Source: a virus (Duplodnaviria > Heunggongvirae > Uroviricota > Caudoviricetes). Taken from it: 17,398 nt of DNA. Location: positions 1 to 17,398 of the IMG/VR virus record IMGVR_UViG_2778261177_000007; one strand, given 5' to 3'. Of this stretch, positions 8,987-11,900 are shown in pieces (position 1 is the first letter of the stretch; every line of letters starts with the position of its first letter). A program made the translations under genes and the position numbers. The notes under the pieces were generated by a model. That model had not been told where the DNA came from, ran no database searches, and saw only the letters and a list, made by a program, of their open reading frames with translations.

Positions 8987-11900
8987 ATGACCACTGTGAA
9001 TAAAAAGTTAAAAAAAACTGCATCTGGCGCGATTACATGGTCGGTAATTGTTACCCAGATATTATCTCCAGTTTCTCTTTCTTTGATCCCAGCAAACAGT
9101 TTTGCATCATCTGGTAATAAAGATGTTACGCAAACTTATGCCAGCGATGAGCATGCAAATAAAGTGGCCTCATTTGCAGCAAGTGCAGGTCAGAGCCTGG
9201 CGAATAATAATGCAAGTAGTTTTGCTGTAAATACTTTATCAACTCAGGCGACAAAAGAGGTCGTCGACTGGTTGCAACAATATGGCAATGCGCGCATCAA
9301 GCTTAATGTCGATGATTCTTTTTCCTTGAAGGATTCATCATTCGACTTTTTATATCCATGGCTGGATACTCAGGATTATGTGCTATTCAGTCAGACATCA
9401 CTACATCGTACTGATGACCGAAATCAGACCAATATTGGTTTGGGGATTCGTCATTTCACTCCTGATAACGCAATGTTGGGTGCGAATGTTTTCTATGATT
9501 ACGATTTAAGTCGCAGTCACTCTCGTGCAGGTTTTGGGGTTGAGTACTGGAGAGATTATTTCAGGCTTGGTGTAAATACCTATTTTGGTTTGTCTGACTG
9601 GAAGAACAGTCGGGATATTGATGATTATCTGGAAAGACCCGCAAATGGCTGGGATTTTTCTGCTGAAGGATGGCTACCTGCTTATCCGCAATTAGGGGCA
9701 TCCATTCAGTTTGAAAAATATTATGGTAAAAATGTCGGGTTATTTGGAAGCGATAATCTGCAGGAAAACCCTTACGCAGTTACTGGGGGAATTTCTTATA
9801 CACCAGTTCCTCTGATTAAGTTTTCTGCACAGCATAAGCAAGGACAGAGCAACGTTCACGATACAACCTTTGGTGTTGAGTTTAATTATCGCCCGGGCGT
9901 TTCCCTTGCTGAACAGCTTAGCAGTGACAATGTTGCTGTTATGCGAGAAGTCCAGAACCGGCGTTATGATTTTGTTGAACGAAATAACAACATTGTTCTG
10001 GAGTACAAGAAGAAGCATGCACTGAAAATCAGTTTGCCAGAGTCTGTTCAGGGGGAGGGGGAATCAATCATCCCTGTAACACTGACAATCAACAATGCTA
10101 GTGGTGGTATCAAGTCTGTACAGTGGAATGATAGTGCATTCACTGCGGCTGGCGGCAAGATCAGTGGAAATGGCACATCATGGCAGATCACTTTACCGGC
10201 TTATAAAAGCGAAGGTGTAAATTCGTGGAATGTTGGAGCCACAGTACAGGATAACAGAGGCAACGTTTCCAACTATGCCGTGATGAATATTAGCGTTACT
10301 GATAGTGGTGTCTCGACGGCTGATTCGTCTTTTACACTGGATGGAGATTCGTCGCCGACGATCTCTGTTGATAGCCAATCCACTTATCCGATAGTATTAA
10401 GCCTGAAAGATAGTAACGGTAAGGCATTAACCGGACTGGCTGATGACATTGAAATGTCAGTGGAATTTACAGCAGATAGCAATAGTGCTCGACAGCGTGA
10501 AACGGTAACTGCTCCGTCATTAGGCGCGGTAGAGGAAATCTCTGCTGGGGTATATCGCTCTGTTCTGACTGCTGGTTCGCAGGCTGGTACGGTACGTGTA
10601 ACTGCAAAAGTTCAGGGAAAAACCTTTACTCTGAATATTAAGCAGGCAGCCATTACTGATAGTGATGTATCGACAGCTGATTCGTCTTTTACACTGGATG
10701 GAGATTCGTCGCCGACGATCTCTGTTGATAGCCAATCCACTTATCCGATAGTATTAAGCCTGAAAGATAGTAACGGTAAGGCATTAACCGGACTGGCTGA
10801 TGACATTGAAATGTCAGTGGAATTTACAGCAGATAGCAATAGTGCTCGACAGCGTGAAACGGTAACTGCTCCGTCATTAGGCGCGGTAGAGGAAATCTCT
10901 GCTGGGGTATATCGCTCTGTTCTGACTGCTGGTTCGCAGGCTGGTACGGTACGTGTAACTGCAAAAGTTCAGGGAAAAACATTTACTCTCAGTATTAAGC
11001 AAACAGCAGCAACAGAACCTGATTCTGAGGTCAGTGCTGTTTTAACCGCTGCACCAGCAGAACAGGTAGTTGGTTACAATATCAATCTACAACTGGCAGT
11101 GAAGGATTCACAAGGAAATGCAATCACTGGTGATAACACTCTGAGCTTTTATGCTCTTAACCAGGCAGAAGGAGTCGAGTTTGGGACTGTAACGGAAAAA
11201 GACGGTGTCTATAGCGCGACAGTAACTTCAAAACGAGCTGGTAAGATTACTATCGGTGTTAAATCTGATAGTCATGATTTCTCAGGTGTTAAGAAAGAAA
11301 TCACCTTTATTGAGGACCGGCAGCAGGTTACATTCTCTCAGTTTGAAGCCAGCCAAAATAATGCATTGGCTGATGGAAAACAGAGAAATATGGTAACTGT
11401 AAGCCTTGCGGACCGTTTCGGCAATGTTGTTCCTGGTTATGCTGTCACATTGTCTTTACCAGCAGGGATAACTCAAGTTGGTGGTGAACATGCTGTTTCA
11501 ACTGACGAAAATGGTAATGCTATTTTTGCGTTAATAAGCTCCACTCCGGGGTCTTACGTGATTACAGCTCATGCTGGTTCTCAGATGTCTACTGAGTTAA
11601 CAGTGACCTTTGCATCAAATATGACCGGAGCTTCACTGTCACTGACGCCTGAAAGCAGTAGTTTAATTTCCAATATTCCTGCTAATGGTAAGGATGCAGC
11701 GGTATTAGATGTGCAGCTGACAAATACGAATGCGTCGGTCAATGGGCAAAAGATTCAGCTCATCACCTCATCTGAAGGATTATCTATACCAACAAATATC
11801 GTGACTGATTCAACAGGGCATGTTTCTGTTCCGCTTACAACGGTGAAAGCTGGTGAGTACACGGTGACTGCACGGGTGACTGACGGTTCCCATAGCGTGG

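Follow-up and report, generated by a model that had tools for sequence, protein, structure and literature searches.

The adhesin gene and its surroundings

The window, by which we mean the whole 17,398-nt stretch of DNA analysed, is identical (0/17,398 differences) to NLOX01000009.1, a contig of the draft assembly GCA_002230545.1. It carries a long gene for a surface adhesin that is a cargo of E. coli lambdoid prophages. The genes and features around the repeat described below are:

2748..4210, minus strand: Red-type recombination genes, YqaJ/lambda-exonuclease-like at 2748-3428 and RecT/Bet at 3425-4210 (Pfam)
8987..12895, plus strand: inverse autotransporter (type Ve) adhesin gene, 1302 aa (ORF, Pfam), a cargo gene of the prophage, flanked by gene P (replication) and the nin region
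9155..9988, plus strand: outer-membrane beta-barrel anchor (IAT_beta) of the adhesin (PF11924, residues 57-334; PDB 4e1t/4e1s)
12907..12927, no strand assigned: terminator-like hairpin, bidirectional, separating the adhesin and esterase genes
12932-13975, minus strand: esterase gene, convergent with the adhesin gene

In related prophages, the Red-type pair bears the annotations exonuclease and Bet. The hairpin is a candidate terminator by consensus match only, with 2 sites found against 0.2 expected, and a promoter scan 5' of the adhesin gene (3 sites against 1.5 expected) was uninformative. A 334-aa ORF at 14864-15868, which matched no family, was taken instead as an antisense ORF within an IS3-family transposase gene. 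In EC958, the adhesin gene and iss lie on one prophage. Megablast found no match to the adhesin gene in a phage genome collection, so that the gene is undocumented in the sequenced free phages of that collection. Apart from a 357-bp contig, a one-genome-per-species scan returned only an E. albertii homologue (80% identity) that is truncated, its contig stopping at residue 237.

The protein joins an intimin-like 12-stranded barrel (PF11924) to a Big_1/Invasin_D3 passenger, the combination that marks an inverse autotransporter, and RefSeq labels the gene 'inverse autotransporter beta domain-containing protein'. The Pfam match to IAT_beta (residues 57-334) has an E-value of 4.9e-101 and scores 338 bits against a cut-off of 22.3; sequence comparison with the PDB aligned the barrel to those of invasin (4e1t, E 1e-73) and intimin (4e1s, E 8e-63). 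In the passenger, Big_1 is matched over five stretches (E 1.6e-54) and Invasin_D3 over seven (E 1.5e-53), and the first domain of the passenger resembles D00 of intimin (6tqd, E 9e-10). Given one ORF and a barrel anchor, the adhesin is probably a membrane-anchored single chain. No Pfam family matched its C-terminal ~120 residues, and neither LysM nor C-type lectin domains were matched by Pfam anywhere in the protein.

Scoring against the NCBIfam models for named families (intimin, IatC, SinH/IatB, YchO/IatA, Ilp, YrIlm and Cronobacter Inv) gave values below every equivalog cut-off: IatC, 391 against 2400 bits; intimin, 329 against 1400; SinH, 317 against 999; Ilp, 312 against 1125; YrIlm, 305 against 750; Inv, 287 against 710; and YchO, 272 against 508. 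The gene has no name yet and does not appear in the published list of inverse autotransporters of E. coli. Full-text literature searches turned up no paper on it specifically, the sole trace being a row of the Periscope dataset considered below.

Anatomy of the repeat

Within the passenger, Tandem Repeats Finder reports an array at 10296-11001 (period 357, 2.0 copies, 98% matches, no indels, score 1370), and a repeat search pairs 10296-10595 with 10653-10952 at a spacing of 357. Base-by-base comparison resolves the array into the following parts, all on the plus strand:

10296..10652, plus strand: repeat unit 1, 119 codons, one Ig-like stalk domain; outer 5' edge, core and internal-type 3' edge
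10653..11009, plus strand: repeat unit 2; internal-type 5' edge, core and outer 3' edge
10319..10623, plus strand: 305-bp core of unit 1, matching 10676-10980 without a mismatch; it provides the homology for unequal crossover and gene conversion
10676..10980, plus strand: perfect 305-bp core of unit 2
10624..10675, plus strand: internal junction, distinct in sequence; departs from the outer edges at 7 + 3 positions

The two units share 347/357 nt. All ten mismatches fall at the unit edges, three in the first 23 nt (10308, 10312 and 10318) and seven in the last 29 nt (10624, 10633, 10635, 10645, 10646, 10651 and 10652). The first-pass annotation had placed a base-perfect 357-bp duplication at 10298-11011; the length was right, the coordinates were 2 nt off, and "base-perfect" was too strong, as perfection is confined to the 305-bp core. 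Its description of about 300 identical bp with diverged edges was exact, and the self-alignment that it called for did not reveal copies that differ throughout. Beyond 10296 and 11009 the period-357 likeness ends abruptly. Were the cores to diverge as the edges do (10/52), 305 nt without a difference would have a probability of 5e-29, which excludes chance as the source of the perfect core.

The 357 nt correspond to 119 codons and lie in frame within the 1302-aa ORF. One unit is one Ig domain of the Invasin_D3/FdeC type, as judged by homology: a unit alone scores 39.2 bits against Invasin_D3 (Pfam cut-off 33), its residues 8-110 aligning to positions 2-86 of the 98 of the profile, and it also aligns with a single FdeC Ig domain (4e9l residues 293-385, E 3.8e-7). 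This assignment relies on the matches to 4e9l and Pfam and not on a structural model; an AlphaFold2 single-sequence model of residues 339-780 (pLDDT 51, pTM 0.26) was too poor for a fold search and was discarded. Among the roughly nine Ig domains of the adhesin, only this one is repeated.

Copy number varies among E. coli strains

The adhesin gene is present in about 10% of 5,426 complete E. coli genomes. A census of 562 records in these genomes, made with coverage-threshold queries (cumulative counts of 84 for one copy, 201 for up to two, 553 for up to three and 556 for all), assigned one copy of the unit to ~84 records, two to 117, three to 352 and four to 3. In the same search, one genome gave six separate matches, and five matches lay on plasmids. 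The fetched loci fall into four length classes: 3552 bp with one copy (L004, L007 and L009), 3909 bp with two (the window, L001, L005, L006, L008 and L020-L022), 4266 bp with three (L002, L003, L012 from EC958, and L013) and 4623 bp with four (L010 and L011). The ORF is open in every one of them. In a protein database ranked by bit score, no homologue exceeded 1540 aa. Some megablast matches limited to query positions 397-1501 were first read as a second, mosaic gene with another barrel; the fetched loci turned out to be three-unit forms of the same gene, and the pattern is thus an artefact of the BLAST alignment.

The ST131 reference strains EC958, JJ1886 and JJ1887 carry the gene, mostly as a three-unit allele. 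Three copies were also found throughout the serial or clonal isolates 4/0, 4/1-1, 4/4 and 2/0, U12A-U15A, the S and R series, and 1162C/T7/invT2; over epidemiological times copy number thus seldom changes, and the array does not act as a fast switch.

The copies evolve in concert

Between the copies of one allele, the core differs at 0 positions in the window and in L008, 1 in L005, 1-3 in L001 and L002 and 12 in L006. Between allele lineages, the differences amount to 13-23 nt (4-7%), and the cores group by allele and not by position in the array. The junction differs from the outer edges at 10/52 positions, 6/10 of which are synonymous, and its signature is common to all allele lineages and to every internal junction of the three- and four-copy alleles. 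A junction shared by divergent lineages, together with cores that are near-identical within alleles, indicates an old duplication that has been homogenised within the gene. The first-pass annotation had left open a very recent duplication or ongoing homogenisation; homogenisation stands, whereas recency does not, as lineages 4-7% apart in the core have one junction sequence.

That a 357-bp segment was copied so recently in this strain that it had too little time to diverge is accordingly very improbable. The perfect identity of 305 bp between the units fits such an event, and one-copy alleles exist as candidate ancestors. A fresh duplication, however, predicts a junction equal to the outer edges, and not one that differs at ten positions, six of them synonymously, and recurs in divergent lineages. 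Moreover, the allele pair L006 and L007 shows a change from two copies to one. L007, with one copy, equals L006 unit 1 at unit positions 1-190 and L006 unit 2 at 293-357, and the flanks of the two loci differ at only 1/1309 and 2/1886 positions. Because L007 is a chimera of the L006 copies, which differ from each other at 12 core sites, the direction was from two copies to one, by a crossover that maps inside the core, between unit positions 191 and 292.

Other footprints agree with recombination within the gene. L008 (two copies) and L009 (one copy) have flanks that differ by 0 and 1, and L022, an ST131 allele with two copies, is the EC958 allele less one unit, with flank differences of 0/0. 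In ST131-type alleles, marker SNPs are shuffled among the copies. Unit position 73 is C in both copies of A20 and GF130 and T in both copies of the window, and L001 has C/T. Some differences between alleles stem from mosaic exchange and not from vertical descent: L008 departs from the window by 5.2% in the core, by 1.5% in the left flank and by 0.3% in the right. The suggestion that the duplication is a substrate for the gain and loss of Ig modules is thus borne out by intact alleles of one, two, three and four copies in complete genomes and by the single-crossover chimera L007.

Purifying selection on the protein, or on a nucleic-acid signal embedded in its gene, could in principle keep the copies identical in place of recombination, as the Ig domain is presumably functional and the edge differences are mostly synonymous. 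We regard this as the least probable explanation of all. Of the 16-20 core differences between lineages, 12-14 are synonymous, yet these same sites match between the copies of one allele; the copy-number variants and chimeric units show recombination acting; and no ORF of at least 100 aa lies on the opposite strand or in the other frames across the repeat. No Chi site was found in the whole window.

Reliability of the assembled copy number

The copy number and the perfect core identity of the window rest on a draft assembly. It is unlikely, although less so than the two alternatives above, that the array is an assembly artefact in which the true copy number differs (three copies collapsed to two, for example) or slightly differing copies were merged into a consensus. 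In the closest complete genomes (L001, A20 and GF130), the cores of the two copies differ at 2-3 positions, and the absolute perfection of the window's core could therefore be in part a product of consensus in a draft WGS contig. Short-read assemblies do fragment or collapse at the locus, as the first-pass annotation had foreseen. Proteins labelled 'partial', with lengths of 449-451, 512, 533-534 and 633-640 aa, stop inside the repeat, the many of 449-451 aa where the perfect repeat begins. Over all assemblies, the ST131-type two-copy protein occurs on at least 1000 contigs and three-copy proteins number about 1,250; in complete genomes the figures are about 28 and 352. An unrelated assembly holds a 357-bp contig of exactly one period, and the yrIlm gene of Y. 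ruckeri provides a precedent (PMC6868369). Against an artefact, five complete genomes contain a 3909-3910-bp gene that is 99.8-99.9% identical to that of the window, about 117 complete-genome records have two copies, and the same gene sequence (0-1 differences) occurs in four independent assemblies and three prophage contexts. The complete genome B1172 (L008) likewise has two perfect cores, with 0 differences.

A model for homogenisation and stalk length

We consider it highly likely that the repeat is an old duplication whose cores are homogenised by intragenic recombination, and that the same process varies copy number, which would alter the reach of the stalk. Homologous recombination within the gene, through unequal sister-strand crossover and gene conversion, would keep the 305-bp cores identical, and the outer edges would escape because unique sequence adjoins them. 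The same recombination would add or remove whole units in frame, giving rise to the natural alleles of one to four copies. RecA or phage Red would presumably provide the enzymology, and the Red-type genes of the prophage are a possible extra driver. Each unit gained or lost may alter the stalk, which is presumably rod-like, by one Ig domain of roughly 4 nm, so that the C-terminal tip would project nearer to or farther from the outer membrane, according to the 'Periscope Protein' principle. Adhesion or immune exposure may change as a consequence.

A more speculative extension, which we regard as quite doubtful, is that stalk length is under lineage-specific selection (for instance by O-antigen or capsule thickness, three units being near-fixed in ST131) and that the prophage Red exo/bet genes, 5-6 kb upstream, drive unit gain and loss at induction. 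If so, a new host would receive from the phage an adhesin together with a way of readjusting how far it projects.

In practical terms, gene lengths and protein calls from short reads are unreliable at this locus, and automated annotation may split long intact alleles. The alleles form a natural series in which otherwise identical proteins carry one to four identical Ig modules, and could serve to relate stalk length to adhesion or antibody access. Roughly a tenth of complete E. coli genomes carry this unnamed gene, and so do the reference strains of the pandemic ST131 lineage.

Comparison with known systems

Periscope Proteins are surface-anchored proteins with tandem stalk domains that are near-identical in DNA and vary in number between strains, for which recombination has been proposed (Whelan et al., 2021; PMC8201768), and a review counts inverse autotransporters among their Gram-negative members (PMC9704523). 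The adhesin repeat is a textbook case of a kind already catalogued, and adds nothing conceptually beyond the established picture of Periscope Proteins and concerted evolution. The adhesin is a single-chain surface-anchored protein (anchoring by homology); its tandem repeats exceed 50 residues and are near-identical in DNA (119 aa, 347/357 nt); and their number varies among related strains (1-4, with ST131-type alleles that have identical flanks). The definition also includes an anisotropic rod of independently folding repeats and an adhesive cell-distal domain whose projection depends on repeat number; in the adhesin both would be putative features, each unit covering one Invasin_D3 profile and one domain of the FdeC crystal structure. 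Classic arrays reach 46 units, against one to four here. Cluster 53 of the Periscope Dataset S1 is very probably this gene: the row, labelled 'YeeJ' (A0A192CME6), gives E. coli, a 119-aa Invasin_D3 repeat and 2-3 copies, and six of six descriptors fit, the identity being judged from these descriptors. YeeJ itself has about 2,350 aa and a LysM domain and C-type lectin cap (PMC6714894), whereas the adhesin is ~1,000 residues shorter, matches neither domain and is encoded in a prophage and not at a conserved chromosomal position.

The barrel is closely related to those of invasin and intimin, but the intimin score (329 against 1400 bits) and the lack of a match to a C-type lectin tip or LysM set the adhesin apart. 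FdeC (EaeH; 4e9l) of E. coli, too, is an inverse autotransporter, and its passenger consists of Ig domains throughout. The relation is distant, with a 13-residue insertion in the adhesin unit, and FdeC is the product of a chromosomal core-type gene, has 1,415 aa and is not reported to contain identical repeats. YrIlm and YrInv of Yersinia ruckeri, as summarised in PMC6868369 and PMC6714894 (from Wrobel et al., 2018), have ~300-bp Ig repeats that are identical in DNA, vary in number between strains and are under-counted by short reads. Like them, the adhesin is an inverse autotransporter with DNA-identical Ig repeats of variable copy number. Unlike it, YrIlm is described there as having >20 identical repeats and a C-terminal lectin-type cap; the adhesin is prophage-borne, had no lectin domain detected by Pfam and scores 305 bits against a cut-off of 750 for the N-terminal model of YrIlm. 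Gram-positive repeat adhesins of the Rib, alpha C and SasG type differ in their folds, sortase anchoring and much longer arrays, but share with the adhesin identical tandem domains whose copy number is shifted by intragenic recombination.

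Anatomy of the repeat

Tandem Repeats Finder placed the sole long tandem array of the window at 10296-11001 (period 357, 2.0 copies, 98% matches, no indels), and a second repeat search of the window also recovered a pair of copies spaced by 357. Base-by-base comparison of unit 1 (10296-10652) with unit 2 (10653-11009) gave 10 mismatches at this period. Three fall within the leading 23 nt and seven within the final 29 nt; between them lies a perfect run of 305 bp, the core (10319-10623 = 10676-10980). Assuming the divergence rate of the edges, the probability of no difference over 305 nt is 5e-29. 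Period-357 likeness stops sharply beyond 10296-11009. All three analyses bear out the tandem, in-frame duplication in the adhesin gene that the first-pass annotation described, and its account of about 300 bp of identity with divergence at the edges only agrees with the 305-bp run and the placement of all 10 mismatches. Its coordinates, 10298-11011, lie 2 nt off, and the term "base-perfect" for the full 357 bp overstates a measured identity of 347/357.

The unit spans 119 codons, in frame with the 1302-codon open reading frame (8987-12895). Pfam assigns residues 57-334 of the encoded protein to an IAT_beta barrel (E 4.9e-101), followed by Big_1/Invasin_D3 domains; the barrel closely resembles those of invasin (4e1t, E 1e-73) and intimin (4e1s, E 8e-63). 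The isolated unit scored 39.2 bits against Invasin_D3 (Pfam cut-off 33), its residues 8-110 covering positions 2-86 of the 98-position profile, and it aligned, with a 13-residue insertion, to a single Ig domain of FdeC (4e9l residues 293-385, E 3.8e-7). The remaining Ig domains are remotely similar to the unit (local alignment scores of 28-57 versus 556-573 for the two units). These matches indicate that one repeat unit is one Ig-like stalk domain, so that each unit gained or lost should add or remove exactly one such domain, and the stalk is expected to become correspondingly longer or shorter.

The number of units varies

The gene was found by megablast in 561 of 5,426 complete E. coli genomes. 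We fetched 18 further gene copies from complete, draft and metagenome assemblies; the 19th locus found to encode this protein (L016) is the contig of the window itself. The reading frame is open in every fetched allele, from one to four units.

Adhesin alleles by number of 357-bp units
One unit: 3552 bp, 1183 aa; L004, L007, L009
Two units: 3909 bp, 1302 aa; window (= L016), L001, L005, L006, L008, L017-L019, L020-L022
Three units: 4266 bp, 1421 aa; L002, L003, L012 (EC958), L013
Four units: 4623 bp, 1540 aa; L010, L011 (complete genome AVS0193)

For a census of the complete E. coli genomes, one- to four-unit queries were used and records with 80% coverage in one place were counted, a count that depends on copy number. 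The queries were covered by 84, 201, 553 and 556 records, respectively, from which we derive about 84 one-unit, 117 two-unit, 352 three-unit and 3 four-unit records. A systematic sample of 60 records agreed with these proportions (9, 13 and 37 records with one, two and three units), and the census predicted 1392 separate matches where 1408 were observed. No protein longer than 1540 aa was found in a 5.8-billion-protein collection ranked by bit score. Three units were present throughout several series of closely related isolates; changes in copy number are not frequent. In the complete-genome searches, plasmids accounted for five matches, and a single genome gave six separate unit matches, from two loci or else from a longer array; in strain ST-131 (NZ_CP157672.1) the gene carries an IS2 insertion.

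Unit loss and gain in closely related alleles

Up to position 190, the single unit of the TUM14771 allele (L007) agrees with unit 1 of the two-unit MRSN346647 allele (L006) at 6/6 informative sites, and from position 293 onward it agrees with unit 2 at 15/15; outside the units the two genes differ at 1/1309 and 2/1886 nt. This pattern is that of a single crossover between positions 191 and 292 that deleted one unit. An IS3-disrupted O gene is common to B1172, with two units, and strain 5132, with one, and their gene flanks are 0 and 1 nt apart. In a two-unit ST131 isolate (L022) the allele is that of EC958 with one unit removed and the flanks identical, and AVS0193 has the EC958 allele with the middle unit duplicated. 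The other four-unit allele, L010, differs from AVS0193 in marker arrangement and hence arose independently. The view that the duplication is a substrate for gain and loss of Ig modules is upheld by the intact one- to four-unit alleles and by the crossover product.

An old duplication with homogenised cores

All alleles share one architecture: one 5' edge type opens the first unit, one 3' edge type closes the last, and internal junctions carry a sequence of their own, a third type, which does not vary among lineages or among the junctions of the three- and four-unit alleles. Six of the 10 edge differences are synonymous third-position changes, which fits the expectation for old neutral divergence. 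Within an allele, the 305-nt cores differ at no position in the window and L008 (B1172), at one in L005, at 1-3 in L001 and L002 and at 12 in L006, whereas the same copy differs across lineages by 13-23 nt, mostly synonymous. Moreover, unit copies group by allele and not by position. These comparisons show that the duplication is old and that the cores are under concerted evolution. Thus, of the two options first offered, very recent duplication or ongoing homogenisation, the core differences favour the second, and the junction common to all lineages speaks against the first. Protein-level selection, which would keep the copies alike through their product, cannot explain the identity of the cores, because synonymous sites vary across lineages yet not between copies of one allele. 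At unit position 73 a variant is caught in transit between copies: the complete genomes A20 and GF130 have C/C, Z1323HEC0475 has C/T and the window has T/T. The window allele differs from that of B1172 by 0.3% downstream of the array, 1.5% upstream and 5.2% in the repeat cores; such mosaicism points to prophage alleles having exchanged the array segment.

Homologous recombination between the 305-bp cores is the best-supported account. Copy number would be changed by unequal sister-strand exchange, and gene conversion would homogenise the copies. Diverged edges are predicted by unequal exchange, since the outermost edges adjoin unique sequence and could never be overwritten. The host RecA pathway would be enough in principle; possibly, the exo/bet genes of the prophage (2748-4210) could act as an extra driver. 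No Chi site occurs in the window.

Reliability of the assemblies

A warning that short reads may collapse or expand the array proved justified. The all-assembly protein collection contains numerous "partial" products that break off at 449-451 aa, where the perfect core starts (residue 445), and others that end at 512, 533-534 and 633-640 aa. P0061, a two-unit ST131-type protein equal to the EC958 protein minus one unit, is on at least 1000 contigs in all assemblies versus about 1,250 for three-unit proteins; in complete genomes the corresponding figures are roughly 28 versus 352. Finally, a 357-bp contig (CAXORL010000232.1, L015 1-357) in a "Moraxella osloensis" assembly is exactly one period, internal junction included, with one mismatch to window 10618-10974. 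This contig is a popped-out collapsed repeat, probably from E. coli contamination of that assembly. Annotation is affected as well: in AVS0193 (NZ_CP124455.1, L011 2092-6714) PGAP/RefSeq annotates the four-unit allele as two pieces, a barrel pseudogene marked "partial" and a CDS named "invasin domain 3", although its 4623 bp read through without interruption between start and stop codons (1540 aa).

Two units in the window itself are plausible. That their number or perfect identity is an assembly artefact seems unlikely: the sequence does come from a draft assembly, and the nearest complete relatives show 2-3 core differences, but a 3909-3910-bp gene, 99.8-99.9% identical, is present in five complete genomes, and three further assemblies contain the same gene sequence (0-1 differences) in different prophage contexts.

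Prophage setting

The window is E. coli DNA. Across its 17,398 bp it does not differ from draft contig NLOX01000009.1 (GCA_002230545.1; window 1-17398 = L016 15-17412), and it is collinear, at 98-99%, with lambdoid prophages beside icd (EC958) or thrW (Z1323HEC0475). In order, the genes are integrase, exo/bet/gam, cI-like repressor, YdaT, O, P and the adhesin; the last of these, flanked by replication gene P and the nin region and convergent with an esterase gene, occupies a phage cargo position. In EC958, iss is on the same prophage.

12907-12927: terminator-like hairpin between the adhesin and esterase genes, common to both
12932-13975, minus strand: alpha/beta-hydrolase (BD-FAE/esterase, phrog_3341), convergent with the adhesin gene

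The L006/L007 allele lineage has no esterase, so the two are separable cargo genes. At 7461-7573 the O replication gene (7020-8039) contains tandem repeats (TTTACCCGAATCAGGTAAAAAAG-like; 19, 23 and 47 bp) that resemble lambdoid replication-origin iterons. Only a remnant of the prophage is left: ninB (14423-14827) is followed by two IS3-family elements, and past the window end the source contig has McrB/McrC-like genes in place of phage late genes. A 334-aa frame (14864-15868, plus strand), with no match in Pfam, PHROGs or NCBIfam, is antisense to an IS3-family transposase (14831-16044, minus strand; 404-aa HTH_Tnp_1 + rve product called in the source contig) and hence most likely spurious. Escherichia albertii NBRC 107761 has a homologue of the adhesin at a contig end (L014 3001-3711; 80% identity over residues 1-237), the sole relative found outside E. 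coli when one genome per species was searched.

Comparison with known systems

The adhesin fell below the curated cut-off of all named NCBIfam inverse-autotransporter models (IatC, intimin, SinH, Ilp, YrIlm, Inv and YchO), and neither its size nor its location fits any of the seven E. coli groups in the inventory of Goh et al. (2019). [quoted passage not shown] What is new here is the range of one to four copies with its frequencies, the concerted evolution and crossover footprint shown by the alleles, the prophage context, and the finding that a widespread, ST131-associated adhesin is unnamed and unstudied. In kind, the finding is ordinary. The behaviour of the adhesin is the defining behaviour of Periscope Proteins (PMC8201768), a class that explicitly includes inverse autotransporters (PMC9704523). 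In the Periscope dataset, all descriptors of a row labelled "YeeJ" fit the adhesin gene and none fits the real YeeJ, so its variation has very probably been catalogued already, though never analysed. The closest specific precedent is YrIlm of Y. ruckeri, the repeats of which are likewise under-counted by short reads (PMC6868369).
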